Positions 28,075 to 61,863 of a DNA stretch of 64,000 nucleotides are shown in pieces. The notes below the pieces were generated by a model. It was not told where the DNA came from. It made no database searches and worked only from the letters and a program-made list of their open reading frames with translations. The stretch is from Anthoceros angustus. Its lineage: Eukaryota; Plantae; Anthocerotophyta. Made by a program: the position numbers and the translations under genes. How positions within the stretch are numbered: the first letter of the stretch is position 1; each line of letters starts with the position of its first letter. Where the stretch lies: positions 558,001 to 622,000 of the forward strand of contig VJWM01000119.1 in assembly GCA_010909165.1 (NCBI GenBank), in the 5' to 3' direction.

Positions 28075-30595
28075 ATTTATATAAATATTTATGTAGGTAA
28101 GTATTGATCATAAAGAACTACTTAGAACACTCGATTTAAGTGGGTTCATCCTTCAAGGGTACTATTTAGTTACTATAATAATAATTAGCTAATTCAAAGA
28201 GTAGTAGGACTAGTAAAAATTATACAATATGAATTATAGTAACTAAATAATACTTAACTACTTAATAACTAATATTAAATATTTCAAATATGAACTATAT
28301 AACCTCAAATATTTATTTAGTTCATTCTTTTTTCATGAACTAATCAACATTGCTAGAATAATTAATGTGAATTTTCAAGAAGCGGGAAACATGACGAAAT
28401 TGTCTTTGACATGGAAGTAAGATTTTACATCATAAACCTCAAGTACCAAAATAATCTTTTGATCAAGTAATTCAAAGTCCTTGAGAATAATTATGAACTT
28501 GATTCGTAAAGGGGCGCCACGATAGCCTCGGAATTTGAGTAGCATGATTTGGTACTAGACCAGCATAATGTCTGCATGATGATTTTTTTTTCTTTGATTA
28601 TGTGTATATATGTAATCACTAATTATCTATAAGTTCATGTATTGACATCTCTTACTCCGTATATGATCATGGAAATGAGCCAATACAAGTGGGACAAAAG
28701 CTTGAAAAAGCAAATCCAAGTCTTCTCAAGAAGATGATGTAATACAAGTGTTCGGATGCCAACGAAAAAAGTTTTTTCACTCAGAGGTGAAAATTATCCA
28801 TCATGGCCCTTGAGGAATGGATTTGATGGGAAAATATACATATATGCCCCATAGAAATGGCATCTAGTTAATGTCATCCGTCACTCACTGCAAGTATTTT
28901 TGTCCCCTTGCTATCCAGCTATACTAGTCAATTTATTTGGATGGTCAACTTATATGTCAATAATTAGCTCACTCAAAGAGTAGTACGGCTAGTAAAAATT
29001 ACACAATATGAATTATAGTAACTAAGTAATACTTAACTACTTAATAACTAATATTTAATATTTCAAATATAAACTATATAACCTCAAATATTTAGTTAGT
29101 TCATTCTTTTTACATGAACTTATCAACACTGCTAGAATAATTAATGAGAATTTTCATGAAGCGGAAAACATGAAGAGGTTGTCTTTGACATGGAAGTAAG
29201 ATTTTACATCATAAATCTCAAGTACCCAAATAATCTTTTGATCAAGTAATTCAAAGTCCTTGAGAGTAATTATGAACTTGATTCGTAAAGGGGCGCCACG
29301 CCTGATGACGGCGTTTGAGTAGCATGATTTGGTACTAGACTAGCATAATGTCTGCATGATGATTTTTTTTCTTTGATTATGTGTATATATGTAATCACTA
29401 ATTATCTATAAGTTCATGTATTGACATCTCTTACTCCGTATATGATCATGGAAATGAGCCAATACAAGTGGGACAAAAGCTTGAAAAAGCAAATCCAAGT
29501 CTTCTTAAGAGGATGTTGCAGTACAAGTGTTCGGATGCCAACGAAAAAAGGTTTTTCACTCGGTGAAAATTATCCATCATGGCCCTTGAGGAATGGATTT
29601 GATGGGAAAATATACATATATGCCCCATAGAAATGGCATCTAGTTAATGTCATCCGTCACTCACTGCAAGTATTTTTGTCCCCTTGCTATCCAGCTATAC
29701 TAGTCAATTTATTTGGATGGTCAACTTATATGTCAATAATTAGCTCACTCAAAGAGTAGTACGGCTAGTAAAAATTACACAATATGAATTATAGTAACTA
29801 AGTAATACTTAACTACTTAATAACTAATATTTAATATTTCAAATATAAACTATATAACCTCAAATATTTAGTTAGTTCATTCTTTTTACATGAACTTATC
29901 AACACTGCTAGAATAATTAATGAGAATTTTCATGAAACATGAAGAGGTTGTCTTTGACATGGAAGTAAGATTTTACATCATAAATCTCAAGTACCCAAAT
30001 AATCTTTTGATCAAGTAATTCAAAGTCCTTGAGAGTAATTATGAACTTGATTCGTAAAGGCGCCACCGATGACGGCGTTGAGTAGCATGATTTTGGTACT
30101 AGACTAGCATAATGTCATGATGATTTTTTCTTTGATTATGTGTATATATGTAATCACTAATTATCTATAAGTTCATGTATTGACATCTCTTACTCCGTAT
30201 ATGATCATGGAAATGAGCCAATACAAGTGGGACAAAAGCTTGAAAAAGCAAATCCAAGTCTTCTTAAGAGGATGTTGCAGTACAAGTGTTCGGATGCCAA
30301 CGAAAAAAGTTTTTTCACTTAGAGGTGAAAATTATCCATCATGGCCCTTTGAGGAATGGATTTGATGGGAAAATAGACATATATGCCCCATAGAAATGGC
30401 ATCTAGTTAATGTCATTCGTCACTCACTGCAGGTACCTTTGTCCCTTTGCTATCCAAATATACTAGTCAATTTATCTGGATGGTCAACTTATTATCAACA
30501 TGATAAGTTCAAGAGTATAGATTGCAATCATAATTATTATATCATTCACTTCACATGCGAGGAGGAGAAACCCGAACAACTTCGTCATACTGGCC
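28075..30595. repeat. AT-rich ~760-780 bp unit in three tandem copies
   Basis: Units start near 28178, 28959 and 29735 (AATAATTAGCTCACTC); a further diverged copy lies at 35160-35880. Confidence 0.9.
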
Positions 30596-30783: not shown

Positions 30784-33700
30784 CCGTCCGTGCGGGCCTG
30801 GGCTCCAGCCTTCCGGTGGTCTAGCCTGCATCCGTCGGCGCCGCCCGCGGATGTTCTAGCCGTTCTTAGCGTGTGATTTTGGTGGATTCCGTCTTGGGGA
30901 TTAGCAGTTTTTAGCATTAGTTTTAGTTTTTTCCGGTGTTGGGGATACTAGTTTTTACCATCAGGTTTGGAGTTTTTCCGGCGTGAAGATTAGTCCTTTT
31001 TGGCATCTGGTTTGGCGGTCTCCGGCGTGAAGATTTCGTAGTTCTTCGGCATGAGGATGAGTTAAGGTTTTCGCCGGTGGGGAGTTTCCGACTTCAAGCG
31101 CAGGGATTAGTGGCTCTTAGTGTTGGATTTGGTATTTTTTGGCGTGGGGATTTGCTGTTTTTTGGCTTCTGGTGCGATGGTGTGCGGCGTGGGGATTAGT
31201 ACTTGTTGGCATTTAGGGTTTGGTTTTTTTTCTGAGGGGCGTGGTTGGTCCGGCAAGGTTGGCAATTTTCAGGTTTTATTTTTTTTTCTGCCATAGGTCC
31301 CCATTCGTTTGCTCCCGTGAAGCACACTCCATGCCCTGTGTGCGGGAAATTGTTCAAGCCTCAAGGAAATAAGAGCCATATTGGTCTGGTCCATAACGCT
31401 TTCGATCAGACCACTTGGGAGGCTCAGCTGTGGCTTGCGTCTTCTTCCTCCACTGTTGTCCTTCAGACTCCAGATACACTTCCTGGGCCTTCGCCGGAGT
31501 CTTGGCAGTGGTTGCAGAGGCAGGTTGATCATCTTCTCGCCCTGTACGAAGTGCGCTTCCCGGGACCGCGTCTTTTTCGGCGCCGTCCGTGGCGTCTTTG
31601 GGATGACGTCTGCCTCGCTTATCGCCTTCCCTTGGAGCGCCTTGCGTAGGATGCCCGTGACAAGGTTGCATGGGCCTTGTTCCTTTTCCTCCCTCGGTGC
31701 ACGTGGTGCCTTCGTTGCTCCCGGGGGAGGGGGGGCGAGAGGGGAGGTTTTTGGCCAACGCGAGGTCCCCTCCAGACTTCGCCGGTTTCGGGCGGGGGAT
31801 TGGGAGGTTTTGCAGAGGAGGCTGGTTGCGCTGCGAGGTCTAGGTTGGATTATGCTAAGCTGGACCATGTTCGCTCGGACCCTACGAAGGCACATCTGAA
31901 GACGTGCCTTTTGCCGGGTTGGGTCGGGGAGTATGCTTGCGTTGATCATGCTCTTCGCCCACAGCCGATGGCGCCAGCTTCCGAAGAGACTATCGCTGCC
32001 GTTCGTGCCCTTCATCCGAGTGCGGGGAACCCTATTTCGCAGGTTATCCAGGACTTCGTCCCTGAGGAGCCCTTGTGTTTAGCCAGGCGATCTTGATAGC
32101 ACCCTACGCTGCGTCTTTCTTTGGGTGGTCTTTCGGTGCATGCCTGACCACCTTGGGACCACTTACCCGGAGGATCCTCTAGCGGTTTTTCCGAACTGTT
32201 TTTTCTGGTGGCCGCATTGGCGAGGGGGGAGACCCCTCCTCGTATTTCTCAAGTTTTGGGGGCGAGCAGATTGTTGGCCATGGAGAAGCCCACTCTTGGG
32301 ATGCGCCCTATCACCGTAGACGAGTCGTTCTTCCGGCTTATTGGCCGTGGCTTTGCCATCCAGCTTCGGGAGCAGTTCCAAGCCCATCTTAGTTCACATC
32401 AGTTTGGGATTGCTATGCCGGGGAGCTGCGAGTATGTGGATTTCGGAGTGGAGGCGGTTCTCGAGACCCATACTAATTGGGTTGCTCTTTAGGTCGACCT
32501 TCAACACTGTCTCATGGTCGGCCATCTTCGACGAGCTCAAGAACACAGATGGGCAGTTGGCCAGCCTTAAGCTTATTCCCTTTGTCCGCTGTTTTTATGG
32601 GTCTCCTTCCAACCTCTATTATCAGCATGGGCCCTTGGTGGAAGGAGTTTCTATGCTGAACTCGGCGATGGGCACTAGGCAAGGTGACCCTCTTGGGGGT
32701 TTAGGGTTTAGGGTTTAGGGTTTTAGGCATTTATCTTCAACCGCCTCTTTAGTGTGGAAACGTTTGTATCCGTCTGTGGCCGATAATACCCATATCCTCG
32801 GGCCTAGAGACAAGGTTAAGGTGGCGTTTGATTTCTTCGCCTCACAGCTCTCCCGCCTTAAGCTTGGTTTGAAGGTCAAAATTATTAAGCGCAAGGTTTG
32901 GTCTCCCTCTGGCATTGTGCCTTTTCTTCGGTATCCGGAGGGGGATATTGCTTCTCCGCCAGGGCTTCGGGTTCTTGGTGTCCCGGTTGGGCCTCCTACT
33001 TTCATCCAGGATTATGTAGACGCGGCTTTGGGTGAGGATTTGGCTCACATCGACGATCTTCTCAACTGGAAGTCCTGCAAGTGGCGTTTGGGATCCTCTC
33101 CTTTTGTTTTGCGCGTCGGCCAGGGTACCTTCTTCGAATGGTTGCCCCCTCCCCGGTTCTCTTCTCTAGCCTAAGGGAGTTCGACCAGCGGCTTATGCAG
33201 GTTTTAGGCGACATCATCGGCCCAGGCACCTTCGAGTGTGCGGCGAGGATCTCTCGAAGCGGCAGGCATTTCTTCCTGTCGCTTTTGGGAGCACCGGTTT
33301 GCTGACCAAGGAGGCCTCCGCGCCCGCGGCTTTCTTAAGGAGCTGGGCTCTCTCTGCCTCCATCTTGTCTTCCCGTTTCTTAATCCGGCATTCACACATC
33401 CTGGAGGCTTTCATTGCGGGCGTTGAGGAGGGTGTCTTTCCCCTGTAGGCCTCGCTAAGGTTAGCTAAGGACTCTTTATCCTCCATGGAAAGGGCTGCCA
33501 TGCCGTCTTTTTCCTCGCTTCCCGAGGTTGGGCTCCGGGGGCTTCAGGCATCCTTCCTGGAGAAACATTATGGGCAAGCGTAGTTGGCCCTCCTCCATGA
33601 TTCCTCCATTTCTAGGCCCACTGGGGCTCATCTCCGCTCTTGCTCGAGGAAGGGGGCATGTTTTTGGCTTCTAGCTCGACTTAATATATAGGTGTTCCGC

Positions 33701-34530
33701 ATCGCACCAGCAACTTTTTCCACTGCGATGCTTTTTTGCTTGGGCTTGGTCCATCCTCTGACTTGCTCTCTTTCGACTTGCAGCTGGGGGGCCCCTCTCG
33801 ATGACTTCGGGCACACTTGGCTCGCTGGCCCGCGGGTGGGCATCTTATCGCTACGCACGACGCTGTCCAAGACGTCATATTTTGTTTTGCTAGGGAAGGC
33901 GGGTTCCTTCCATTTAGGGAGCACCTTTACACCTTGCTCAACGGGGTTTCGCATAAGGCTAATCTATTTTTGACTCGGGGGAATCAAGTTTCGGTTGCAG
34001 ATGTGGTTGTAACAAACCCCACCCGGGACAATGTCTGCGAACATGTTATCCTTAACCCTCCAGGTTGGGCGGCGGAGGGATGCATGACGGTTAAGGTCCA
34101 CAAGTACTCTCTTATGCAGGATGGCCACGCCTTCGTCCCCCTTGCCATCGAGACTCATGGAGCCATGGGCAAGAATTTCTCCAGGTTCGTCAAGTTTTGC
34201 GCCAAGGCTTATCATAGCCCCAAGAATGGGGTGGCCTCCCCCTTTCTTGTATTGTTGCTTTCTTCTAGCAGAGGATTTCCATTGCTCTGCAAAGGGCGTT
34301 GGCCAACACAGTGTACAGAACGATAGCAAGCGCGGGAGATGCGGCTTCTTCGACACTAGTGGTAAGTAGGCCTTTTCACATCCCTGACCATGAAGTTCTT
34401 CGGGCGGTTGGTAGTTTTGAGATGCGTGATCATGGGGGCTAGTCCCCTTAGCATGGTGTCCTTCGTTGGGTTTTCCCCCCTTTGTTTTTGGTGTGGATGG
34501 GTTTTTCCCATCATTTTTTTAATAATAAAG
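30596..34530 (+). mobile_element. Near full-length, degenerate CRE/SLACS-clade non-LTR retrotransposon (C2H2 finger - RT - CCHC - REL endonuclease)
   Basis: CPVCGKLFKPQGNKSHIGLVH; EKPTLGMRPITVDESFFRL; HQFGIAMPGSCE; FNTVS; GTRQGDPLG; ADNTHILG; GLRVLGVPVG; HDAVQD; ADVVVTNP; KVHKY; FVPLAIETHG; 3' hairpin plus AATAAA. Contains stops and frameshifts. Confidence 0.88.
32697..32727 (+). repeat. Interstitial Arabidopsis-type telomeric repeat (TTTAGGG)x3 plus TTTTAGG
   Basis: GGGTTTAGGGTTTAGGGTTTAGGGTTTTAGG immediately after the QGDPLG codons. Confidence 0.85.
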
Positions 34531-35159: not shown

Positions 35160-35880
35160 ATTATTACTTAATAATCAACTATTTATTTAGATAAGTATTG
35201 ATCATTAAGGAATACTTAGAACACTCGATTTAAGTGGGTTCGTCTTTCAAGGGTAATACTTAGCTACTATAATAGTACTTAATTAATTACTTAATAATAA
35301 TTAGCTCACTCAAAAAGTAGTAGGACTAGTAAAAATTACACAATATTAATTATAGTAACTAAGTAATACTTAGCTACTTAGTAACGAATATTTAATATTT
35401 CAAATATGAACTACATAACCTCAAATATTTAGTTAGTTCATTTTTTTTACATGAATCAATCAACACTGCTAAAATAATTAGTGTGAATTTTCAAGAAGCG
35501 GAAAACATGACGAAATTGTCTTTGACATGGAAGTAAGATTTTACATCATAAACCTCAAGTATCAAAATAATCTTTTGATCAAGTAATTCAAAGCCCTTAA
35601 GAGTAATTATGAGCTTGATTCGTAAAATGGCGGCACCATAGCGCCTGATGATGATGGCGCTCGAGTAGCATGATTTGGTACTAGACAGCCATAATGTCAT
35701 CCGTCACTCAGTGCAAGTACCTTTGTCCCTTTGCTATCCAGTTATACTAGTCAATTTATCTGGATGGTCAACTTATATGTCAACATGATAAGTTCAAGGG
35801 TATAGGTTGCAATCACGACTATTATCCTATTCACTTCACATGCGGGGAGGGGCACCCCGACCAACTTCGTGGATATGCCC
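35160..35880. repeat. Diverged copy of the 28-30.6 kb AT-rich unit with an internal deletion
   Basis: Shares GAACACTCGATTTAAGTGGGTTC and TGTCTTTGACATGGAAGTAAGATTTTACATC; jumps from CATAATGTC to ATCCGTCACTC. Confidence 0.85.
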
Positions 35881-36496
35881 ATTAACTCTTAGATTCACGT
35901 GTAACTTTGAATTGGTTTCACACTTTAGCTGGCACATCAAAAGAGTGCGGAGACTTAGATTCAATTCCAAAATGGGTTATTTTTTCCTTCAATACCTGTA
36001 AACTTATTTCTCCGTTTAAATTACTTTTTTATTACTGAATTCTAAAACCTAGCTATTTGTTTCTTTCCGCAAGGGCGGTCTAGTGATGCGACTCATGCTT
36101 CCGTGGAACAAGTGTGCAATAAGCAAATGGTGCCACCTTTGTTTAAAATTTGCAGAATAGTTTTGAAATTTTGTTTCACTACCTAGAACGTTTTTTACAA
36201 CTTTGCATTTTGATACATAAAAATATGGGCATGTAGGCCCATTCAAATAACTAAATAATACCATCTACCATAAAACATGTTAATTATAAAAGATGAAAAA
36301 GTATATTAATGTGTATTTTAAGATATTAGATCATCACAAAGAGACCCCAAGGGCTACGGTAAAATAGAGTAACTAAATTCCATGTCTAAAATCATCTACA
36401 TACTACTGAGAGAGGATATATACTAGGGGGATGGAGAGGCCTACATACTAATGAGGCCTCAACTACCAGTGTGGAGGGTGACCTCCAGATGGTGGA

Positions 36497-36942
36497 TGTC
36501 ATGACATCCTGGTGTGATAACTTGTGAGTGGACATGTTGATTAGCTAGGATGTGCATGAGCATGGCATGCATGCCCATCTGTAGGCATGCACACACAAGC
36601 ATGCTGATAACCATGTGCGTGACCCTGCGGAGGCCCGTGAATCGCGCGTAAGCAACGGGTGACGGACCCGTGCTGGGCCAGGCGTCACGGCGGAATTATG
36701 GCGCGCCATGGGCGCGATCCTCTTGGGCGTCAAGGCGCACCAGCGGGTACTGATCGGCGGAAGGCGCGCCAAGCATTTAGGCGATAAAGTAGGCTCCAAT
36801 CCGCAGTGGCAAGCGGATTGCTGATGTTTGTTCTTACAGAGCAGCCATACGAATCCCAATGAAGAAGGGTGCGGAGTTCCTTTGACAATCACGGCTCTGG
36901 GAGGTGCGGGTGGATGGGCTTAGACCCGATTGAAGGACGAAT
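36497..36942 (+). repeat. Terminal direct repeat A1 (copy A2 at 45822-46262)
   Basis: TCATGACATC..GTGATAACTTGTGAGTGGACATG...GAAGGACGAATT present at both loci. Confidence 0.92.
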
Positions 36943-37278
36943 TTTGCACATCAGCAATCCGCTCGCGCTGAAGCCAACGGCGGCGTCCAACCAAGAGGGC
37001 TGTGAAGGGAATCCAAACACGTCACGAAAGAGCGGTGGACCACACAGATAAGTTGATGGTGAACCATAATGAGAGTGCTGTAGATTACGGTATGCTGTTT
37101 TATGCGGGGTGGTCCATTTTGCACCTAGCTACCTTAGCAGAAATAGAGCCCGCATATTTGTGGCAGAGGTTGTGGGATGAAGTGATTGACAAACTGGCAT
37201 GGCTCAGAAGGGGGAACCAATACTGACTTTGATAGAATGCCATACATAGTCTCTCGTAGAGGAAGGGATTGATAAGTT

Positions 37279-38740
37279 ATGGTGTTTTTGCGGTCTGGGT
37301 GGACAAACGAGATCACTCCCGTCCAGGAAACTCGCAGTCCCATCACCCAGTACCCGTCAGTCCGTAGGCCAAGTGGTCAGTTTGAGAGGGAGCATAGTCC
37401 CATCCGATCTATAGCATTTGAAGAGAGTAGTGCTGGAGTCGGAATGGAATATGAAATAGCGCCTAGCAAGAATGATGTGTTTACTGGCAGACATGGCAGC
37501 ATGTCGCTGGCTGATTTTGAGGAGAAGTTTAGGTGGGCAATCGATGAGATGGTGCTCAAGTACAAATCCGAGTTTACACCTGAGATGGCATTGAGGAAGA
37601 TGAGCACGTTCCTTGCAGGAGAGGCATTGACGTGCTATCGGGACTGCAAGGACCAGATCTTGCAAGATGCGCATGCTCTGGCCAAGGCAAGAATGGCCAA
37701 GAAGATGTTGAAGGTGGATGAGGTGGAAGAGGCGTCCAGTTCTACACAGGCTGACACCATTACATACCTGGTGGATGAGATGTTCGCCAAATTCGCGAAA
37801 TGTTTCGATGTCGTCCATAGAAAAGATTCGAGTCCGAGTTCACCATCAAGCATAACGAACCTCTCGATCCGCTTACTTGAGGTTGAGGCAAGCGGTAAAA
37901 GACACGCGTGTGAAGACAATGCGAAGCCGCCCGGATCTACATAGCTCTCCCGGGAAGGCAAAGGAGGGTGATTGCCAATTTCTTGCATATGATGCAGTGC
38001 GGATTCAGTGGAACAAGCCTATGAGATGGCCGAGCGGGTCATGAAGGCGATCGTGACCGTGCCTGGGAGGAGCACAATTTGGTCGGGGGGCTGACATGCC
38101 GTGAATAACCCAAGGTTTCATGGTAGAACCACACAACGGAACATACTCGGATGAATCTGCGAATTCCCCAAGCAAAGGGCATACGGCCAATAGCGCAGCC
38201 ACCAATAAAGCAACGGTGGAATGCCTTCGCTGCAGGGGGGCACACAAAGCTTTCGAGTGTGAATACCGAAGTGGGGGAACGAAGGAAAAAGAGCGTTGTC
38301 GTACGTGTGCCAAGACCGGACATACAGAAGCGGCGTGCTGGCAGGCCCATCCTGAACTCAAGCCAAAAGGGGCGGTAGAGCGGATGTCTGACAGAGCGAA
38401 ACCAACAGGAGGGTACACTCGGAGGGCGCTCCTCGGTGAGGTGCACAGGCTGCAAGAAAAATTGGCCATGAGCGTAAGCACGGGGGGAAGTTCGGTTGTC
38501 ACCACTGAGGAGTATGATTCGGATCCGGTGTATGCACTAATGACCATGAGGTCGTTTGAGGATGACAGGCTGGCCTTGACTTGGGAAGGCAGAGAAAGAA
38601 GGCCGAGAAAGGAATCACTCAAGATGCCCAAATCCTTGAGACGGTATGAAGAAGACCCGAGGTACGGATGTCAAGAGAAATCACCTAGTCTTGAGCTCAT
38701 GCTTGAGAAGGTGATGGACGTTCGTAATGAGTTTGCGTGA
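37279..38740 (+). CDS. gag: Retroelement Gag (frameshifted) with two zinc knuckles
   Basis: CLRCRGAHKAFEC and CRTCAKTGHTEAAC (CX2CX4HX4C); FTG...FEEKF...FLAGEALT capsid-like segment. Confidence 0.75.
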
Positions 38741-38919
38741 CCTCGGGGTCAAAACACAACCATTGAGGCAAGCGTTAAAGGCCCGGATGCGAAGGAGACT
38801 ACAGGGGCGTGGCGAGGTGTCCGGATGTGTCGGTTGGGTGAACACCTAAAACTGCGGCACGGGCAAGGGGCATTGCCATGGTGAAAAACCAAGGCCGAGA
38901 GGTGACGATCAGCAGGTTC

Positions 38920-39290
38920 GCTCGAACATGTGTTGGTGGACACGGTGCGGACCGGTATTGCTCGGGCGTGCAAAGCCCTACATGTCAGGAGATAAGCTCA
39001 AGCCATGTGATGTCCACATCACCACATCGGGAACCAAGGAACGAGTAATGGGAATGACCCGTGAGCCAGTACGCATAGAATTCAAGCCGGGAACCAAGGA
39101 TGCCTCCGTTATCGAAGTTCACTGCCTGGTATCTAACGCAAGGAACTATGACGCGTTACTTGGGGCTGATGCCACACACGGCCCAGCAATGGGGGTAGAT
39201 CCGCTGCACTCAGAAGCATTTTACAGGCCACGATGGCGAGATGGAGATTTCACACACGTGGCCAGGATACCACTTGACATGAGGCGACGG
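38920..39290 (+). CDS. Retroviral-type aspartic protease (frameshifted)
   Basis: EHVLVDT(GA) at ~38924-38950 and YDALLGAD. Confidence 0.7.
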
Positions 39291-39599
39291 GATGAAAAAT
39301 CAAATAGCATGATTGCATTCACGGCTTGTTCGGCTGATGTTGTGCATAGGCAAGTGGTTTGGGAAGAAAACCCGGATCTCATGCGGGAAGAGGTACAGGA
39401 GAGGATGTGGAGCCGCAAGTGCATGTACATCGTGAAGAACCCCATGCTATCGAGGCATTGTCTCGGAGCTCACCCGACGGTCGGTCAAGGCATGGAAGGC
39501 CTCCCACGGCGTCCGGACAACCATATGCCTAAGCTGGAATTGGATGATACCACCTTGAGGATCAACACGGCCGTGATTCGGTGGCAACGACGAGCGAGG

Positions 39600-40450
39600 C
39601 ATACATCGATGGAGTTGTGTTCGGGGATCGGCGGGCTTGAAGCGGTATTAAAGAGTGGAATGCGAGTAAAGAAATACACGTGTGTCGAAATAGATGAGAA
39701 GGCACGGCGTGCAAGTCCGGGATCATCGGGATGCAAAGAGCATATCCATGAGCATGGAAGCGGTGAAGGGATGTCGAGCGGTGCCGTCCGATGTTAGCTT
39801 GGTGGGGAAAGCGGCGGTTGAAAGCCATCGGTGTCCGGTCGATGTGTTAATTGCGGATGGGAATGCGGGGCGTTTTCTTGGTTGTGGAAAGGGTGACGGT
39901 GTGGAGATGGCTGCGATCGGGATTAAGGAAATACGGTGAGCAACCCAACTTCTGGTACTATTGGAGAATGTCATGGAGCATTAGACAAACGCGAGCACAT
40001 CGGGAAGAGCTATGAAACTCGGATGGTGGCTAGGTGAGGAATTTGTCATTGATCTGTCAGACGGGTTCATATGCCCATCGCGCGGAGTTTTTGGACCAAC
40101 ATCACCGGTGGAGGTGTTGAGGCAACATCGTGAACCCACCAAGCCGTAAAACGATGCGTGGATGAGATTCGGGGCAGGCGGATGTTCTCGGCGGTCGAAG
40201 GACGGACAAACCGCCGTGCTTTCCAAAGAACAAGATTGGGAAGCCGAAGGGCCCGCCCACGCTCGTAAGGGGCTGCCATCTTATGCCTTCCGCAGGTGGG
40301 GACGGCATGGTAGTGGATGTCGGAAGCAGATCGGTGAGCCCACGGTGGCGGCGTGAAGCGAGCCATGGGATTCGACAGATGGGACATCACGCGAGGCATC
40401 TCCAGCATATCGCAAGTTGCTCGGACAAGCATTCGACGACTTGCTGCGGT
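39600..40450 (+). CDS. C5-cytosine DNA methyltransferase domain within pol (frameshifted)
   Basis: Motif I ELCSGIG (39612), motif II VEID, motif IV PVDVLIA-(G)WEC..FS (39858-39866, needs one indel), motif VI LLENV (39964), motif VIII AHR.R.FWTN (40073-40103), motif IX EP...AMGF, motif X LLGQAFD (40417), in canonical order. Confidence 0.82.
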
Positions 40451-40799
40451 TGAGCGTGGGCTGGTCACACAAATGGGCGGTACAAGGCGGAGGTGAGGCA
40501 CACCTATTGGTACTCGAGAAGGCGAGTTTCCAACGGAGTATCGTAAAGAAAGGTACACTGCGGACACCGCAGGAACAGCGACAATACAAGAAAACCGAGA
40601 TGGTGTGAATTCAGCACATGAGTGGCAGATATGCGAGGAACTGGAAGAAGCCGATCGGACGAGATCCGGATATGCTACTGATGAAACACGCCGCCAGCGT
40701 TGGTGGGTGAGGCGGTATGATCGCATCAAATTCAAGATCACCACCACCACTAGTGAACCTGTGTTCCGACGAAGGCAGTGAGTCCCATGGAGTGGGACA

Positions 40800-42620
40800 T
40801 CGTAGAAAGAAGATGCAAGGAATTGGCGGCGGCGGGCTAATTAGGAAGTCCACTTCACGATGCGCTCTGGTGTTGCCATTGAAGAAGGATGAAAATGGCG
40901 AATGGAAGGACCGGAGGATGTGTGGGGACTATCGTGCTCAATGAGGTGACGCCTATGGAGCGATATCCTATGCCCACGCCGGATGAAATTTTCGATGCCA
41001 TCAGGCGGGCCAAGTATTTCACTACGTTGGATTTCGATCGCTTCAATCAAATTGTCATCGAAGAGAAAGACAAGTGCAAGACAGCGTTCTGGGGCAAAGA
41101 CCAACTTTGGGAATGGGAAACGATGCCGTTTGGTCTAAAGAATGCGTCTATATACTTTCAGAGGGTGGCTGATTTGGAGCTGCAGGGACTGCCGTTTATA
41201 CGATGCTACATCGATGACATCTTGGTGTTTAGCAACAGCCTGGAAGAACATCTCCAGCACCTGGAGATTCTATTGCAGAGGTTGGCCGCATCGGGATTAA
41301 AGGCACATCCAAAAAAATGCAAGTTCGCATATAAAGAAATAGAATACTTGGGACACAAGATAGTTCCAGAGGGTGCTGCCTCGGTTGGCTAAGTCGTGCA
41401 ATTGATCTAATGCCTCGACCCGAGGCGTCCGCATTGAGGGCATTCTTGGGCGTCAACTACTATCGCCGCTTTGTCGCAACATGAGTAGTGTGTGCAAGCC
41501 GTATGAATTGCTCAAGAAGGAGTGCCACAGCAATGGGAACAAGAGCAAGAACAAGCTTGGCGAATTGAAGAACCAGTGGCGGAAGGCCAATGTTAAAAGG
41601 CGACTTTGAGAAGCCTTTTGTCTTGCACACGGATTGAGTGCGGTGGTCTTGGGGCATGCTAGCTCAAGCAGACGAGGAAGGCGAGGCGAGTCGTCGCATA
41701 CGAGGTCCAACAATGCCGCGAGGCAAACTACTCGTCATATGAAGGAATGCCCGCGGCCGTTTGGGCGGTTTTACATTTCGAGTGTATTTGTTTGGTGAGC
41801 TTTGATTGATCACGGATCATCAGCCTTCGGCTGATGACAAACATGAAATTGAGCGGAAACTTGCCGGATGGGCGCTTTTGCTTGTACGATGCTACATCGA
41901 TGACATCTTGGTGTTTAGCAACACTGGAAGAACATCTCCAAAGACTGGAGATTCACAGAGGTTGGCCGATCGGGATTAAAGGCACATCCAAAAATGCAAG
42001 TTCGCATAAGGAAATAGAATACTTGGACACAAGATAGTTCCGGAGGGTGCTGCCTCGGTTGGCTAAGGTACGCGTAATTGATCTAATGCCTCGACCCGAG
42101 ACGCCGCCGCATTGAGGGCATTCTTGGGACCGGTCAACTACTATCGCCGCTTTGTCCGCAACATGAGTAGTGTGTGCAAGCAATCGTATGAATTGCTCAA
42201 GAAGGAGTGCCCGCAATGGGAACAAGAGCAAGAACAAGCTTGGCGAATTGAAGAACCAGGAAAGGCCAATGTTAAAAGGCTCGACTTTGAGAAGCCTTTT
42301 GTCTTGTACACGGATTGAGTGCGGTGGTCTTGGGGCATGCTAGCTCAAGCAGACGAGGAAGGCAGAGCGAGTCGCCGACACGCGAGTAGGTCCAACAATG
42401 CCGCGAGGCAAACTACTCATATGAAGGGAATGCCCGCGCCGCTTGGGCGGTTTTACATTTCGAGTATATTTGTTTGGTGGAGCTTTGATTGATCACGGAT
42501 CATCAGCCCCTAATCGCTGATGACAAACATGAAATTGAGCGGAAACTTGCCGATGGGCGCTTTTGCTCGACGATATGCAGTTGTGCATCGAGCGGCAAAG
42601 TGCATCTCAATGCCGGACTC
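40800..42620 (+). CDS. pol: Reverse transcriptase plus RNase H (frameshifted; 41199-41884 duplicated as 41885-42570)
   Basis: RMCGDYR, YPMP, YFTTLD, KTAF, MPFGLKNA, CYIDDILVFS, KKCKF, YLGH; FEKPFVLYTD, NYSSYEG, LITDHQP. Confidence 0.9.
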
Positions 42621-42899
42621 GGCGGGAACCCGGTGCGACAAAGGTGATGCGTGGAGCAAGGCGGGACTTTGGATCCACTCAAGGCATGCCCGGTTACTAC
42701 ATGGCCCTTATGTCCATAGAGCAAGAAGATGGAAGGCATCCGCCGAGGGAGGAGAGATATCCGCGAATGAGCAAGCCATACATCTGCGGAAGGATGATCC
42801 TGTATGGATCCCTCGGCCCTACACAGATTACAACGGAAGATCAGTCGTTACACCTATGAAAACGGCAAAGTATGGGTGACAGATCGTGGAGTACTCAAG

Positions 42900-44183
42900 G
42901 AGGTACCACCCATAGGGAGAGGAAGCAATTGGCAACCAAGGTGCACATCACGCTTGGACACTTTGGGGTAAAACGCATCACATGTTGAAGAACGCCTACT
43001 TTTGGTCGGATGTATGCGGATGTTGAAAAGGTGGTGGCCAAGTGTGCGCGTGTGATGCGATTAAGGCCGAGTTCAACGGCCGGGATGTGGTCGCACTCGC
43101 GCCCATCGAGGACTCTTCTTGGATGGTCATCGACTTGATGCACGAGCTACCAATCACCAAGCAGGCAATGTATAATCGCATGTTGATGATCGAGCATTTT
43201 CAAAATGGGTGGAATTGGCCTTCCGCCGCTTAGAAGTTCGCAGATACCGCCCGAGCATTCCGCAATGTGTTCTCGGCAGATATGGTAGTTCTTGAAGTGC
43301 TAAGCGGCCAAGGCAATGAGTTTCGAGGAGAGTTTGCGTTCTTTGGATCGAGCGATAGATCACAGTAACCTCCCGAGATCACCCTCGGTGATGGGTGGCG
43401 GAGCGATTAGTGCAGACTTTCAAGGATTCGCGGAAATATTGCATGGAGATCGAGCCCGATTGTTGGGATGAGCTATTGCCTTATGTGGCTCGGGATACCG
43501 AATCGCAAGCCGCTCTTGGCAACCGATTATACATCATGTTTGGCGAAGCAGTCATGCCAAACATAGTGGCAGACACTTACTCGGGCCGTGGGTGGGCACA
43601 GGACTCAAGGATGTCTTTGAATTGCAAGCAAGAGCCGAGTTATTTCAACGTGATCTGGATGGCCATGGACAACCTAGCTATAGCCCAACAGGATCGACGG
43701 TGTCGTTTACGGGGAGGTTCGTGGAAACCAAAGCAAGGAAGTTTGAGGTGGGTGACTTTGTTTATCTGCAGCATCGACCCTCAACCACTTTGGACGTAAG
43801 CCGGGCGCCTGATTTTGCGAGTGGTACACGTCGGTGAACAAGGGGTGATTGAGTTGGAAGGACAGGATGGGCGAAGGCGTAAAGAGCACATGCGGCATTT
43901 GGCCCCATGCCATCTGCCCAATCTTGACACAAGGACACAACCGCAAGCATGGAGACCACCGATTGATCTACCTTGTGGGTTCTGCGGCCGTGTCTCTGAT
44001 TCGGAATTAATGCTACTTTGCGACAAATGCAACGCAGGGTACCATGTCTTTTGCCTACGACCGCCGCTCAAAACAATTCCAGAAGGCGATTGGTTTTGCC
44101 ACCGCTGCAACACCTCACAAGCGAACCAAGTAGCTGGGGGGCCAAGCGGGCGGCTCATGAGTGACGCAGACTCGACCCAATAG
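42900..44183 (+). CDS. DDE integrase with C-terminal PHD finger (frameshifted)
   Basis: HITLGHFG...C..C (HHCC), IDL, QGNEF, AERLVQTFK, FEVGDFVYL; PHD CGFC..LLCDKC..YHVFCL.PPL..IPEGDWFCHRC at 43974-44108. Confidence 0.85.
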
Positions 44184-44276
44184 GGGCAACAAGGCGCGGG
44201 AGCCCGTTCACATGTCGCACGGGCGACCACGCGTAGGTGTAGAGTAAGATAAGGGGGGGGGTAATAACAAATACGG

Positions 44277-45658
44277 ATGTTTGGAGCCCTAAAACGGCAG
44301 GTCATGAGTGCTCAAGGCAAAGAAGCTAGGGCACCGGAGCCGGGCAGTGTGAGCAAGGAAGATCGCACACAGGCACTTGTGAGGCAACGCGCTGGGAGTC
44401 GTGCGCCACGACGAGGTCGGACCTACCTCACAGGATGCGCGAGGCCGGCGGTGGGTGGTCACCAGCATGGCCGTGAGCGCGAAGACAGCACGCGAGTGGG
44501 GCATCTGGTGCCGTGAGGGTCGATCACAAGCGGGCGTCCGTGCATCCAGGTGATTGGCTGTTTGCAACCCATGAACTAAAATCGCTCTTGGTTTGACGGT
44601 CTTGTGTGAAAGTGAGTCGCCATCACACGACGCTCCGCCGCCTCGCGATCTGTCGGGGCACGACCGCGGTGGGCGATTGAGGCGAGTGGTGTCGTGAAGG
44701 ATCAAGCATTGATTGATCGGTGCATCACGAGGCGGCGGTGGGTGATCACCAGCATGGCCGTGACCGCGATTCGCGGTAAGGAGTCCGTGGTGTGGTGCTA
44801 AGGTGGTCCTATGATGGATTTGGAAGCGGATCATACACGCAAAACACCGCCACTGCATCACAGTGCCCCAATTCCACGAGGCCGTGGAAGATAAGTGGCG
44901 CACTCCTTTGGTGCGCAAGTACCACGGCAAGCGAGCGGCGAAACGTTCACGGAATTACAGGCGTTCTTGTTATCGTGGAGTCTCATCATGAGACATGCAA
45001 TGTTGAGAATTTTCCATATGACCACAGGGACTTGTTCGAACTTGCAGGAAGGGGGATGAACAGGCAATCGTTTGTGTGGACTAGCTTTTGTGAAGGAGCG
45101 TTTCGTAAGTTAGAACATCACCTCTTTATGCATCAAGTTTTTGATCATTGGCCTAAGGAGGGGTTTTTGATGTATAGGCAGAGAAACTGCGGACTTGAGT
45201 CTCAAGGTGTGGCTTAGCCATTTGCATCGCAGCGGACGATATGCCGCCGGCTATCCAAGAGCTTTTATCGCCTATTTGCTTGTCTGCGGACGAGAATTTT
45301 GGAGTGGGATGAGCCCACAACCGAAAGGCCGGTACTTGCCGAACAACAACGTGGGTGAATATTTGCGCACGCAATGCATCGACAAAGCGACTACGTGAAT
45401 GGGTTGAATGGACCACGGATGGCGAGTCAAGGCGAGCTTGGCGGTGATGAGGAAGAGGAGCTAATGGCTCGACATCGAGCCCGAGAACGGCAGCGATTGG
45501 GAAAAGCGCAAGTAGATGAGTACTTTGATCACGAAGAGCGGCGGTGGCGCTCGCCGCGGTCGCCGAAGCACGGCGACCCTCCGAACCCGGCGGACAATAT
45601 GTTTGACGGTTCTCTGAAGATTTTATGGGATATGAAAATGCCCAAAGTCTTTGCCTGA
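44277..45658 (+). CDS. Putative additional 3' ORF of the retroelement, unknown function (fragmented)
   Basis: Chain of overlapping + ORFs (44277-44516, 44792-45217, 45195-45398, 45374-45658) between the pol stop and repeat B1; no recognisable family. Confidence 0.4.
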
Positions 45659-45681
45659 CGTGCGCTACTTTGGCGGGGGCC

Positions 45682-45821
45682 ATTGGCGATTCGAGTTTTG
45701 TGGCTTTGATTAATCACGATCTTGTGCAAACACTTAACTTAAGTGCGGTTTATGGTCATTACACTCCGCACTAGTTACAGTCATCAACGTGTCACAGCGG
45801 CTATGCGGCTCGTGGCGGCGG
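45682..45821 (+). repeat. Direct repeat B1 (copy B2 at 46263-46405)
   Basis: CATTGGC..TTCGAGTTTT...AACACTTAACTTAAGTGCGGTTTATGGTCATTACACTCCGCACTAGTTACAG...GCTATGCGGCTCGT at both loci. Confidence 0.92.
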
Positions 45822-46699
45822 TATCATGACATCTGATGTGATAACTTGTGAGTGGACATGTTGATTAGCTAGGATGTGCATGAGCATGGCATGCATGCCC
45901 ATCTGTAGGCATGCACACACAAGCATGCTGATAACCATGTGTGTGACCCTGCGGAGGCCCGTGAATCGCGCGTAAGCAACGGGTGACGGACCCGTGCTGG
46001 GCCAGGCGTCACGGCGGAATTATGGCGCGCCATGGACGGCAGTCCTCTTGGACGTCAAGGCGCACCGCGGTGCGTGATCGGCGGAAGGGCGCCAAGCATT
46101 TAGCGATAGTAGGCTCCAATCCGCGGTGGCAAGCGGATTGTCGATGTTTGTTCTTACAGGCGACCATACGAATCCCAATGAAGAAGGGTGCGGAGTTCCT
46201 TTGACAATCACGGCTCTGGGAGGTGCGGGTGGATGGGCTTAGGCCCGATTGAAGGACGAATTCATTGGCAGTTCGAGTTTTTGTGGCTTTGATTAATACT
46301 GATGCTGTGCAAACACTTAACTTAAGTGCGGTTTATGGTCATTACACTCCGCACTAGTTACAGGTCATCACTGTGTCCTGACAGCTATGCGGCTCGTAGC
46401 GCGACATGGACGTCGTAGTCCTTAGGATTACCCCATCAAGTGCGTTATGAAGGGCAATGGATACCCCAGCCTAATAACGGAAAGAATATTGTGAAAAAGG
46501 AGAGAGTAGTGCGCCTCCATGGACGATATGCTTTGCCGCAAGACCTCACAATTTCCAAAGCAAGGAAGATGAAGAAGTGGCCTTCCTATTCCCATAACAA
46601 AGCAAGGAGGATGAAGAGACCATGGCCTTCCTATTTTCCTACACTTAACAATGACCTTGGATGCCGTGCGCCGTTACCCCTAACCCAGACGCTTTACGA

Positions 46700-47062: not shown

Positions 47063-47407
47063 CGACCTATTTGTAGAGCGTAGCAACACTTTCTCTAAAC
47101 CACGTGAACACTTTCATGAGCGATTGTCATAAAGTTCAATCAAAAGTTAAATGATCGATAGAGTTATATAAATAGATAATCTTATCTCACCTAGATTTAA
47201 TATTAAAAATTATTTTAAAAATATAAATATATAGTTCAGAGTACAAAAAAGTAGACCAATTCATATTAAGATTATAATATTATAATATATATAATGGTAT
47301 TATTAACTATAAGTAACGTCACTTATGCGTAGATCCTGGACCCCAACGCAAGTGTACGCTGAGGGAAACATTGGAAGGTTCACCAACCAGATGGAGGGAA
47401 GGGAAAA

Positions 47408-48737
<1,330 letters not shown>

Positions 48738-50680: not shown

Positions 50681-53104
50681 TCAAAGACGACTTGTGAAGA
50701 AGCCGTACTTGACAGGGCCGGGGTTTGATGAGTTGGATCCCCTGGCGTAGGTCAGGTAGGACCAGCCGGAAGGGGAGTAGACGAAGAAAGCAAGCGCTAC
50801 AAGAAACCCTATCACAAATCCGGATCCCACTGCCTCGAGGGACACATATTGCACAAGGCCTGCTTCTGGTTGGTCTGCTGAAGGTGTTGGATCTTTGTTG
50901 CGGGACGGCGGCGGTGCGCATTTGTGTGGAAGGTTGACTCCGCATTGGAAACGTAGATTGGGGTTACCCTCGAAGTCGGTATCAGGAAAACTATCAAACT
51001 GGCCGCCTGTGGGAATGTAGCCTGACAGATTGTTGTGAGCCACTATCATTTCCGAAAGCTGGTGAAGACTATTAAACTGGGCAGGAATCCCACCGGTAAG
51101 GTTGTTGTAGGAAAGGTCCAGTGATTCCAAGGACGATATCTCTGCTAGGGTGGCAGGTATGTCACCTTGGATTTGGTTGCGGGAGAGATTCAAGTACCTC
51201 ATACCTATCAATGACCCGAGCTCCCCTGGGATTTTGCCTGTGATGGAGTTGCTTGACAGATCCATCATAGTTTGGGCTTTCAAAATCTGCGTCAACACCT
51301 CCTCGTTGCCTTTTAACTGGACACTCACTTCTACTTGATACAGAGTTGTATTCTGGTAGTAGTACTCCGACGAGGATTCGTCCTGCTGGAAAGCTAGCAG
51401 CCCCGACACATTCTCGGGGATGGAGCCAGTAAAGGAGTTACCTGAAAGATCTAGTACTTGGAGCTGAGATGAATTGGTGATCTCATTGGGTATGGGCCCC
51501 TGGAACTGGTTATGAGCAAGGCTCAACACACGCAGGATGGGCAATTCCAGTAGGAAAAGGGGAAACCTGCCTCCCAGCTTGTTGTTCCGCAGGTTCACAA
51601 ATTGGAGGTTGGAGCTGTTGGCTACAAGGTTAGAAATATCACCCTCCAGCTCGTTGTCATTCAAGGACAGAAACTGAAGAGAGCCTAGGTTACAAAGACC
51701 ACCTGGTACTATAGCAGGAAGAGTTCCTTTGATTTGATTGAAGGAGAGGTCAAGATTCCCAAGTCGCGGAAGGCATACCTCTGCGGGAAGGGAACTCAGC
51801 CTGTTTCGGGAGAGATTGATGCCACTGAAAAAAGAACCCCACGACAGCATAGCTGGTGGAACGAGACCTTCAAGCAGGTTGTTGGAGGCGTCCAAATACG
51901 TGTTTGATACGATGTTTGCCATTCCTGACAGATTCGAAGGTATTGGCCCACTCAATTTGTTGTCGGATACCAACAGAAATCTGCAGAAGATCATATTCCC
52001 GAATTCGGGCAAGATCGGTCCCTCGAAACTGTTCCCGTCCAAAAATAAAGAACGAAGCGAACCCATGGAGGCCAAGGCAACAGGGATTCTTCCAGCCATC
52101 CTGTTTCGGGAAAGGCTCAAGCCGCGCAGCAGGGTAAAGTTGCTGAATGAAGGTGAGGGCATGGAAAAGCCTTCGAGACGATTGTCTGCGAGATGTAAGA
52201 ACATGAGCGTCGGGTTGAGGTTACCCAAAGCCGAGGGGATCAAGCCACTGAGGTTATTCCTCTGGAGGTCGAGTGTGATCAAGGATGTGTTGGCCAGACT
52301 CGCAGGAATACGGCCTGTCAAAAAATTGTCAGAGAGGAACAGGTATCGGAGAGAGAAGAGGTGGCCCAGAGATTGAGGAATGTCTCCACTGAGATTGTTC
52401 CCGCTCAAATCCATCACGGTCAGATTAGTAAGATTTCCGAAGGAACCAGGAATTTTTCCACTCAGCTGGTTGCCCGACATGGACAGTTCCTGGAGAGAGG
52501 AGAGGCGACCTAGAGCCGGAGGAATAGGACCACTCAGATTGTTTTGGTGCAGGGACAACGAAGTCAGATTAGCAAGGTTTCCAAGGGAGTCAGGAATGCT
52601 TCCACTGAGCTGGTTGTCCGACACCGACAACTCCTCAAGAAACCTGTACATCCGAGGCACATTCATACGAGTTAAACATGCAAGCAAGCACACACAGCAT
52701 GAGAGCAAACGGTTCTGCAAGACATCCAAAGCCCGACTTCACCTGAATCGTTCGATCAGGTCGGAAGTAATGCTTCCCGTCAGGTTGCACTCGGACACAT
52801 CAAGAGACCTGAGTTCCCGCAGTTCACCTAGGGCAGCAAGGACTGCTATAGAGTTCTCCGGAGCTCCCGTGGCATTGCTGCTGCTCCATAGATGGATCTG
52901 AAGGGATTCCACGTTGTTCCTCTCATTACAGCTCACTCCGTACCACTGGCAGAAATTGGTGGCTTGAGAGCCATTCGAGACGCCCCAGCCACGCAGCACT
53001 CCCGAGGGATCGTGCAAGGCGGCCCGAAACTCCAACAGGACGGAAGCATCGTCGGCGAGAACTTGTCGGAGGCACAGCCACAACAGCAGCCAACGGAATA
53101 ACAT
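50681..53104 (-). CDS. LRR receptor-like protein (RLP), 2 exons (intron 52644-52742)
   Basis: Signal peptide, LRRNT FCQWYGVSC, many LxxLxLxxNxLSGxIP repeats, island domain, MDLSSNSITGKIP C3 block, GGQFDSF..F.GNP.L, TM helix, short tail; no kinase. Confidence 0.93.
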
Positions 53105-58703: not shown

Positions 58704-59524
58704 ATGGCGGCTCCAGAGCAGCGGCCGGAGCACATGAGGGAGCCATGTCCGGACAGGATTCTGGATGATATAGGCAGCGCTTTCTCCATGGGAGCAGTGG
58801 GAGGCTCGGCTTGGCATTTCATCAAAGGCATGAAGAATTCACCCCGCGGGGAGCGGCTGATTGGTAAGCTTGGAAGATCGGTTTTTGGTGACCCTAGCAA
58901 GCTTTGTATGATTTTGCTCGTTGTCCTGATGGAATTGCTTGCTTGCGTGTGTTGGCAGGGGGGACGCAGGCGGTGCGGATAAACGCCCCCAGGATCGGGG
59001 GTAGTTTTGCGGTTTGGGGAGGGCTCTTCTCCACCTTCGATTGCTCCTTTGTGTACTTGAGGCAAAAGGAGGACCCCTGGAACTCGATTGCAGCAGGTGC
59101 AGCCACAGGAGGTTTCCTGCAATTGAGGCAGGGGATGAAGTCGGCGGCGCGATCTGCCGTTTTCGGAGGCGTGTTGCTGGCTTTGATAGAGGGGAGTGTG
59201 ATAATGCTCAACAGATGGATGGCGAGCATGCCGCCCCCTCCTCCCATGGAGGATCCATTGCCTCAATTGTCAGGCCTCCCTTCCGGCTCCATTCCAGCGG
59301 GCTACGGCGGCTACGCAGGTTTTGCAGGAGGCCAAGCTGCGGGTTCTTCTCAGTATACTGCCACGGACTTCGCTTCCGAGCCTCCGAAAGCAGAAGCGTC
59401 AGGGTCATGGCTCGGGAATTTGTTTGGAAGCAAGAAGGAGGATCAGCCAGCAGTGGCAGTTGAGAAGTTCGACAGCTTCGAGGCCCACCCCGCTCCACCG
59501 ACCCCTGGCTTCGATTTGAAGTGA
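58704..59524 (+). CDS. TIM17: Mitochondrial inner membrane translocase TIM17, 2 exons
   Basis: [23 protein letters not shown]...|[42 protein letters not shown]; plant-type C-terminal extension; intron ~58864-58958. Confidence 0.95.
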
Positions 59525-61090: not shown

Positions 61091-61863
61091 GACTGGAGGA
61101 GACGTCGCGGCCGTCGCATTGGCGCAGCGGAGTGTGAGCGGCCCGGGGTTCCTTCCGGCTGGCTTCCGAGTGAGTCCCGTTTCTGCATTTGCCGTGTGCT
61201 GTTCCGGGTTCTGTGCGTGCGTGCTGTGTGACGCGGTTTCGTGTGCGGCGAGGGATTCCGGTTCCCGCTGCTAGATCTCGGGGCTGGGAATCCCGGGGTA
61301 TGCAGGGATTGCCGCCCGGGGGCATGGTTTCCCTCTTGCCATTCTCGGGGCCCCGTTCCCCTCGCCTCAGTAGGGTTCCGTGGTGGGTATCGGGGGTTTG
61401 GTTTTGGGTCGGTTTTGGTCTGGCGTGGGTGCGTGATTTGTGGTGGTGGGCGGGGACGGGGTAGAGGAGGGTAGGGTGCGGGCGGGGAGGGAATCTGGCC
61501 GTGGCGGGAGGTTCAGGGGCTGCATGTGGGGTGGTGTTCTGTGGCGACGGGGGGAGGGGAATCCAACCGTTTGGTGCGCGCATCTAGCTGGTCTGGGTTT
61601 CGAAGTGGAGTAAGGGTGTGGTTTTGTCCTTTTTGGTTTGGTTTGAATGAACTGTAGGCATTGGTTTGGGTAGGTGATGTTTGTGTTCGTCGTGTGTTTG
61701 TGCTGAAGTGGTGGACCGTTGCCATGGTGCGGCTGTGTGTGTGCAGTGCTGGGAAACACCGGAGAATCTGGAAGAAAGATTTCAGATCCATCGGTGGTAC
61801 TTAAAAAACGGAAAGGAAAGGGCCCAAAGCAAGGCTTTGGGTAAGAGGGGCGCAGGGCTGTCA

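Follow-up and report, generated by a model that had tools for sequence, protein, structure and literature searches.

Does the Ty3/gypsy retrotransposon at this locus, in a host that is likely a land plant, carry a C5-cytosine DNA methyltransferase (MTase) of its own inside pol, and if it does, to what kind of element does it belong and how would such an element replicate? An earlier note on this DNA had claimed such an element and had named an algal precedent for it. The precedent was cited correctly: KnitGypsy-Dnmt3 of Klebsormidium nitens combines DIRS-like repeats and Gypsy domains with a Dnmt3 in Pol, at a Ka/Ks under 0.2 (de Mendoza et al. 2018, PMC5890265). Here we report on the element, its relatives and its ends. 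The window is the whole 64-kb stretch of DNA that was analysed, and all features of the element lie on its + strand.

Results

Layout of the element

The Ty3/gypsy element occupies positions 36497-46406 (9.9 kb) and has the order Gag-PR-MTase-RT-RH-IN-PHD, where PR (also protease), RT, RH and IN denote protease, reverse transcriptase, RNase H and integrase. Gag (37276..38740) was recognized by blastx to the Gag N-terminus of P0333 (E 9e-7; P-numbers denote relative proteins, L-numbers the 35 MTase-anchored metagenome loci) and holds two zinc-knuckle-like motifs (38222-38245 and 38297-38323); a Pfam scan of it gave no significant match. The aspartic protease (38863..39260), with VLVDT at 38930 and DALLG at 39150, aligns continuously to the PR of P0333, which itself has Pfam gag-asp_proteas/Asp_protease_2 matches, and a homology search with a 315-aa PR fragment of the window found nothing. 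RT (40617..41390), with RMCGDYR at 40915 and YIDD at 41207, was identified by Pfam (RVT_1, E 3.5e-26) and by a tree. The end of RT and RNase H (41196..42574) are repeated in a 690-bp tandem duplication (copies 41196-41890 and 41882-42574; 89.6% identity, 15 substitutions, 34 indel events), which may be an assembly artefact.

The DDE integrase (42920..43930; H2C2 finger, core and C-terminal part) is frameshifted and was traced by tblastn of P0004 and by alignment to ORF2 of L003, with which the window agrees at 247/540 residues over RH-IN-PHD. At its C-terminus the integrase carries a PHD finger (43965..44110; Pfam PHD, E 7e-13) and not a chromodomain of the chromovirus type; neither this finger nor the split-repeat ends reported below figured in the earlier note. 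An extra 1.5-kb 3' region follows (44184..45665), the fragments of which look coding; 0 of 13 fragments had a significant Pfam match, and the relatives compared offered no convincing one. The distance from PHD to the B repeat is roughly 175-400 bp in relatives versus 1.5 kb in the window.

The methyltransferase domain

The MTase domain, delimited by frameshift-aware alignment, profile and motifs, spans 39609..40437 and is flanked by protease and RT. Every motif claimed earlier for this interval was found there, in canonical C5-MTase order, the full series being ELCSGIG (39612), VEID (39684), PVDVLIA (39835), GWEC (39855), LLENV (39958), AHR (40073), SFWTN (40086), RAMGF (40359) and LLGQAFD (40417). 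Motifs I, IV (Cys), VI (ENV), VIII (RxR) and X are all present and unrearranged, motif IV reading G-W-E-C and not P-C, and they are distributed over all three reading frames, with about 15 frameshifts in the assembly. Because of this spread a plain Pfam search fails: hmmscan with PF00145 gave E=0.15 in one of 15 stop-free fragments (11.9 bits, below the cut-off of 22 bits). A 41-aa fragment holding motif I had 0 matches in the PDB, and the frameshifts kept the MTase region of the window hidden from tblastn of the intact relative P0132.

When an X was placed at each frame break, the window domain aligned to P0132, a single intact relative, with a score of 125, compared with 39.6±5.0 (maximum 52) for 40 codon shuffles. 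A frameshift-aware profile of 135 relatives yielded 239, against 33.4±3.2 (maximum 41.4) for 60 shuffles and a best of 43.4 when 102 further segments of the window, from either strand, were scored. The domain covers profile positions 13-322, agrees at 106 of 266 positions, and contains 15 shifts and 2 stops; compared with relatives, about 10 codons after motif V are absent. Together with the colinearity of relatives, these scores bear out the claim of a Ty3/gypsy element with its own C5-MTase, and the domain is real.

The non-significant plain Pfam match is what one would expect if the segment were an unrelated fragment nested in an ordinary gypsy element, or a chance set of motifs. We consider this extremely improbable, given a profile score of 239 against a control maximum of 43 and given that the window is colinear with intact relatives over both borders of the MTase, in one continuous alignment with P0330 across MT-RT-RH (315/693 identical) and another with P0333 across PR-MT. 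The longest direct or inverted word common to the two flanks has 9 bases, the GC content matches that of the flanks, and the RT and MTase trees described below divide the two architectures of the family similarly. Among the metagenome loci, PR precedes the MTase in 27/35 and RT follows it in 21/35, the anchoring on the MTase meaning that MTase-less relatives could not appear. A nested insertion was rejected on the profile score, the colinearity with relatives and this flanking by PR and RT.

In a search of the PDB, the MTase family profile ranked DNMT3A first (1.4e-22), then DNMT3C/B, with weaker matches to DRM2 (1.6e-12) and M.HhaI (1.7e-9); likewise, all listed Foldseek matches of the AF2 model of a close relative (P0142, pLDDT 93.5) were DNMT3A/B/C. 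On the HMM ranking, the fold ranking of the relative and the published K. nitens tree (PMC5890265), the window MTase may be called Dnmt3-like. Non-flowering plants have a host DNMT3 that likewise possesses a DNMT3-type catalytic domain with unrearranged motifs (Yaari et al. 2019, PMC6453930); this host enzyme differs in its C-terminal DUF3444 and in standing outside mobile elements, whereas DRM has rearranged motifs, unlike the window MTase (PMC6453930).

Across 178 family domains the motif-IV Cys is kept in 167, EN/EH in 151 and RxR-xx-WxN in 164, and the residue before the catalytic Cys is Glu in 94 and the canonical Pro in 67, the window having the Glu form. The MTase of intact relatives is under purifying selection, with dN/dS of 0.09-0.12 in the three measurable of six pairs (the other three being saturated); for RT the value was 0.04 (one measurable of three pairs).

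Relatives and phylogeny

In P0132, an intact protein, the order is PR-MTase-RT-RH-IN (PF00145, 3.7e-10), and a search with its MTase returned 1,974 representatives at E<=0.001, a count that may include non-transposon MTases and of which the best 150 were inspected. In an RT search, K. nitens ORFs and PHD-tailed relatives ranked top. Intact relatives from Klebsormidium, Closterium and the metagenome loci have the order Gag-PR-MTase-RT-RH-IN(-PHD): K. nitens KFL_009030040 reads PR-MT-RT-RH-IN and a Closterium protein PR-MT-RT. In Marchantia polymorpha, MARPO_0008s0049 (P0332) has a Gag-like N-terminal part and then PR-MT, with PF00145 above the cut-off; it is annotated as 'hypothetical protein', and our literature search found no paper naming it. 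The MTase was in the same called protein in 0/18 RT-anchored top relatives, a count that is uninformative because those proteins begin just before RT. P0004 had no match when viral contigs were scanned with it.

The RT tree united the window with every sampled MTase-bearing element in one clade (100/99) that contains P0336, the contrast set being 17 other Ty3/gypsy RTs including Chara. Within the clade, the window was sister to P0003 + P0330 and then to K. nitens P0009 and P0021 (subclade 96/90). This tree comprised 49 rows under LG+G4 without mixture, with an outgroup drawn solely from matches to the window RT; it left out the long-branch P0335, P0285, P0249, P0251, P0027 and P0007 and took 11 of 55 'MTase after RNase H' rows. 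A first RT tree was a quick one with 127 rows. The MTase tree was also quick (80 rows, to which the 'after' group contributed a third of its rows and the 'unknown' group 11), and in it the window branch was long (1.45), had no supported sister, and fell outside the 'MTase after RNase H' clade.

A second architecture, RT-RH-MTase-IN-PHD, was seen in Scenedesmus sp. PABB004 (P0158).

Among 153 family proteins, the MTase stood after RNase H or just before integrase in 81, after PR or before RT in 18, and alone in 53, and one protein had RT-RH only. In the RT tree, elements of the RT-RH-MTase-IN-PHD type nest inside the PR-MTase-RT group, a topology which suggests that the MTase domain moved within one lineage.

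The window element thus displays the features of Gypsy-Dnmt3, namely PR, RT, RH and IN in order and an intronless, unrearranged Dnmt3 domain in the Pol region, and belongs to that published kind (PMC5890265). It resembles KnitGypsy-Dnmt3 both in the intronless Dnmt3-type domain of a Gypsy Pol region and in its A-coding-B-A-B repeats, arranged as in DIRS (PMC5890265). With the K. nitens elements it shares the PR-MT-RT-RH-IN order of KFL_009030040 and an RT clade. The host of KnitGypsy-Dnmt3 is an alga, however, and that of the window element likely a land plant. Moreover, PMC5890265 describes the acquisition as specific to the K. nitens lineage, whereas the data presented here place it across streptophytes and chlorophytes.

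Element ends and priming

The left target-site duplication, TGGA (36493..36496), is followed by repeat A1 (36497..36948), which starts TGTCATGAC, ends CA, and presumably holds the promoter, the transcript start and R-U5. At the other end, a polypurine-tract-like (PPT-like) G run (45672..45683) directly precedes repeat B1 (45684..45823; starting TG, 87.8% identical to B2). Then come A2 (45824..46264; 94.6% identical to A1, the two differing by 13 transitions and 9 indel events), B2 (46266..46406), whose final GACA is the right end of the element, and the right target-site duplication, again TGGA (46407..46410). The arrangement is therefore A-coding-B-A-B, as also in L020, with A only on the left and B-A-B on the right, in place of the canonical pair of complete, identical LTRs. 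The element begins TGTC and finishes GACA (TG...CA ends), and 4-bp target duplications flank all three copies with both ends (window TGGA, L020 AAGG, L022 CACA). The first nine bases of A1 (TGTCATGAC) equal the A start in seven distinct relative insertions, in all of which A abuts host DNA directly, and a G run also precedes B in L003, L004, L008, L012, L015 and L020. The B1|A2 joint is a palindrome, GACA-NN-TGTC, in L003, L004 and L020, which the window does not keep. The A|B joint varies, reading CA-AT-TG in L020, CA plus a primer-site remnant plus TG in L022, and CA-T-TG in the window.

In L008:11658-11769 and L015:6946-7057 host DNA begins directly after the PPT and B, and A2-B2 is absent. 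Such ends fit a 1-LTR-circle product, recombination between B1 and B2, or short-read collapse.

Positions 36812..36827, at the putative 5' end of the transcript, form a 16-nt perfect complement of 36948-36963 and pair with it in the predicted fold, which points to a self-priming primer-binding site right after A1 (36949..36963). The longest self-complement in 60 shuffles was 12 nt. Several copies have a TATA-like box about 30 bases upstream of the complement stretch (GATAAAG in the window). In L019, L020 and L021 (17 nt) and in L003 (16 nt) the same layout recurs, built from sequence unrelated to that of the window, and was hence found in three unrelated sequence families, counting that of the window. 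Overall, the complement was 16-17 nt long in 5/11 cases and <=11 nt, within the range of shuffles, in the other 6/11, which are more decayed or truncated. Priming by a tRNA was rejected, there being no TGG after A1; the 64-kb window contains no tRNA genes. A self-priming layout was reported for Tcn1 and TAR by Neumann et al. 2019 (PMC6317226), and the window element is like the self-priming Ty3/gypsy elements Tcn1/Tf1 in that the primer site complements the 5' LTR and not a tRNA (PMC6317226). In the main text of that paper the words 'methyltransferase' and 'homeodomain' are absent.

Split repeats are also known from elements with a tyrosine recombinase. The layout A1-body-B1-A2-B2 is that of PAT/Ngaro/VIPER (PMC6681497), which are tyrosine-recombinase elements, and SymbioDIRS-Dnmt3 of Symbiodinium also has A-B-A-B repeats and a Dnmt3 in its Pol ORF (PMC5890265). 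The latter uses a tyrosine recombinase; the window element differs from it in its DDE integrase, its PHD, its TG...CA ends and its 4-bp duplications. Neither fragments of the window element nor the intact ORFs of L003 gave a Pfam match to a tyrosine recombinase, with the proviso that a recombinase in the extra 3' region of the window could be masked by frameshifts. On the lack of a recombinase match, the DDE integrase and the 4-bp duplications, a tyrosine-recombinase element was rejected.

Condition of the copy

The MTase and RH-IN of the window each carry roughly one frameshift per 55 bases. An old, decayed pseudo-element with genuine frameshifts would account for this even rate, and for the 13 transitions that separate A1 from A2. 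We think this unlikely, since the A repeats differ by 2.9% substitution and their indels nearly equal their substitutions, unlike those of L020 (27 substitutions, 0 indels), and since a short-read contig over 39925-40167 differs from the window chiefly by gaps (8 gaps, 5 substitutions). The short-read contigs come from one DNA run (0.08 share), no RNA run being listed as a source, and cover parts of the element with no bridge from PR to MTase or from MTase to RT, and their depth does not equate to copy number. Two host ORFs close by, with 685 and 524 codons, are uninterrupted. Probably, then, the many frameshifts in this copy are long-read consensus errors in a repeat.

Between MTase and RT the window has no TAG, and in the assembled copy approximately 15 shifts interrupt whatever frame the MTase would share with PR and RT. 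The MTase is contiguous with its neighbours in P0132, P0291, P0330 and P0336, and in L003 and L004 a single in-frame stop parts MTase from RT, and nothing else separates Gag-PR-MTase from RT-RH-IN-PHD.

An in-frame stop followed by CAR-YY was present in the MTase-RT linker of all 20 full-linker loci examined (L002-L005, L007, L009, L012, L013, L015-L020, L022-L024 and L029-L031; L010 was left out). Four are exact TAG-CAR-YYA; the remaining 16, among which several represent the same insertion, read TAG/TAA-CAA-CCC. TAG-CAR-YYA is the tobamovirus-type leaky stop. Judged by these motifs, the stop-bearing relatives would make the MTase at Gag-like abundance and RT-IN by readthrough; exceptions are the window, without a TAG in the linker, and the contiguous P0330, P0336 and P0291.

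Neighbourhood of the element

Non-LTR retrotransposons, frameshifted and bearing motifs of RT and of a restriction-like endonuclease, also lie in the window, at 31000-34500 (+), 7221-8156 (-) and 10889-11539 (-), and from these motifs we take them to be CRE-like. Dispersed repeats spaced about 2.2-2.3 kb apart lie at 600-10650. A unit of about 776 bp is repeated in tandem at 28176-30492 and recurs near 35300 (35292-35776). An LRR receptor-like protein gene (50681-52738, -) is EIX2-like, of Streptophyta. From motifs, 16800-18400 (-) is presumably a glutathione-reductase-like host gene, and we take 47313-48732 (-) to be a class III peroxidase gene, its introns measuring about 100-150 bases, 58898-59524 (+) to be TIM17-like and 61678-63252 (+) UDP-glucuronate epimerase-like. 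The short introns and a GC content of about 50% suggest a compact genome of a non-flowering plant. The LRR gene places the host among the streptophytes, where its gene content makes it likely a non-flowering land plant; a host GAE-like protein, taken with two alternative starts, had no match in the collection searched.

Discussion

On balance, we favor the view that the window holds a full-length Ty3/gypsy element of the Gypsy-Dnmt3 lineage, whose MTase would likely methylate the element's own cDNA and whose PHD-integrase likely inserts an end-joined, circularly permuted copy.

With a PPT ahead of B and the self-priming site behind A, we are inclined to regard B+A as the working LTR. Reverse transcription would then yield BA-body-BA, of which the integrated A-body-B-A-B, by its repeat order, is a circular permutation. 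The simplest reading of the sequences would be that the cDNA ends are joined, in a 2-LTR circle or head-to-tail dimer, which would leave the variable A|B joint, and that the integrase would then open the upstream LTR at GACA-NN-TGTC, where B meets A, to give A-body-B-A-B. To our knowledge, no LTR element has been described whose normal life cycle passes through an end-joined and internally reopened circle. As a retroviral precedent, the integrase of foamy virus is reported to cleave palindromic 2-LTR junctions (PMC1180852). Against this route, the B1|A2 joint of the window itself lacks the palindrome, the preference for the upstream palindrome alone has no explanation, and the mirror product A-B-A-body-B, although a symmetric circle should give it, was found in none of the 35 loci.

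The missing mirror product would also agree with a linear route as in PAT/Ngaro, in which the transcript extends into B2 and extra strand transfers across B1|A2 restore the two ends with no end-joined intermediate; so would the repeat order, which is that of the PAT/Ngaro/VIPER elements (PMC6681497). We nevertheless hold the linear route to be rather unlikely. B+A is marked out as an ordinary LTR by the canonical PPT in front of B1 and the primer site behind A1, the A|B joint differs from copy to copy and in L022 retains a primer-site remnant, like end-joined products, and 4-bp duplications indicate a DDE integrase where no tyrosine recombinase was detected.

According to our hypothesis, end-joining and reopening are accompanied by methylation. 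By its place in the polyprotein, the MTase would be in the particle in which the cDNA is made; the protease would free it there, and being DNMT3-like it would methylate CG on the cDNA, such that the new copy arrives pre-marked. We judge it an evenly balanced proposition that a protease-released MTase methylates CG on cDNA inside the particle, the role that we consider most likely for it. The purpose could be mimicry of the host, protection or restrained expression. Self-methylation of cDNA was proposed by de Mendoza and co-workers in 2018 for DIRS-borne Dnmt3 (PMC5890265), and SymbioDIRS-Dnmt3 methylates CG de novo in yeast (PMC5890265).

Alternatively, the MTase could be a non-catalytic or weakly catalytic DNA-binding module which, for example, protects or organizes the cDNA with no methylation of DNA. 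Methylation by the K. nitens Dnmt3 homologue was undetected in yeast, a result its authors call inconclusive (PMC5890265), Glu replaces Pro before the catalytic Cys in 94/178 domains, and the window copy shows no CG depletion. The CG observed/expected ratio of the element (0.97, versus 0.71 in the rest of the window and 0.28-0.70 in relatives) weighs little on self-methylation because of the sequence errors in the copy. We find the non-catalytic alternative improbable in view of the retention of Cys, EN/EH and RxR in 167, 151 and 164 of the 178 domains, a dN/dS of about 0.1 in intact relatives, and the yeast experiments, in which human DNMT3B failed the same test while DIRS-borne Dnmt3 domains methylate CG (PMC5890265).

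The second chromatin-related domain points to how insertion may be directed. The best PDB matches of the PHD finger were CHD4, KDM5A, ATXR5, KDM5B and BAZ2B, the PHD fingers of which read unmethylated H3K4. By analogy, the PHD of the integrase likely reads unmethylated H3K4 as well, and would steer insertion away from active promoters. Chromoviruses also carry a chromatin-reader domain at the integrase tail; in plant chromoviruses this reader is a chromodomain, whereas in the window it is a PHD. A DNA methyltransferase combined with a chromatin reader in an LTR element is likewise a feature of DAM-LTRs/EpiLTRs, which differ in combining a chromodomain with domains of the adenine MTase and DNMT4-related kinds (bioRxiv 10.64898/2026.05.21.726589). 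The same preprint names the streptophyte 'Gypsy-DNMT3' as a separate, earlier-described case, with 0 occurrences of the term 'land plant'; PMC12344493 cites the same Gypsy-Dnmt3 cases.

The Gypsy-Dnmt3 kind is not new, since its domain order and repeat layout have been published and the family is large (the 1,974 representatives at E<=0.001). The end anatomy and the reading of replication, on the other hand, appear to be new here. The main text of PMC5890265 leaves PHD, primer binding, readthrough and chlorophytes unmentioned, and its single mention of target-site duplications concerns LINEs. Our literature search, with subscription papers mostly outside its scope, found no description of a land-plant or chlorophyte Gypsy-Dnmt3, of gypsy elements with split repeats, or of readthrough in such elements. 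Standard LTR finders would likely mis-delimit or miss these elements, as they expect target duplications around an LTR pair.

More tentatively, and with somewhat less than even confidence, we hypothesize that the window element represents an old, green-plant-wide lineage with a Dnmt3 writer and a PHD reader, whose self-primed cDNA would be end-joined to a 2-LTR circle, self-methylated, and reopened by the DDE integrase. With the same reserve, this lineage may span chlorophytes, Klebsormidium, Zygnematophyceae and land plants, with every integrated copy a circular permutation of the cDNA.

In conclusion, the presented data would take Gypsy-Dnmt3 from an oddity of one alga to a lineage that is likely older than land plants. 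A member in Marchantia, a model liverwort, could open the role of a transposon MTase to genetic test. The end anatomy offers a testable explanation of DIRS-like split repeats on an element with a DDE integrase, and has a bearing on a question of long standing, namely whether 2-LTR circles can be true precursors of integration.
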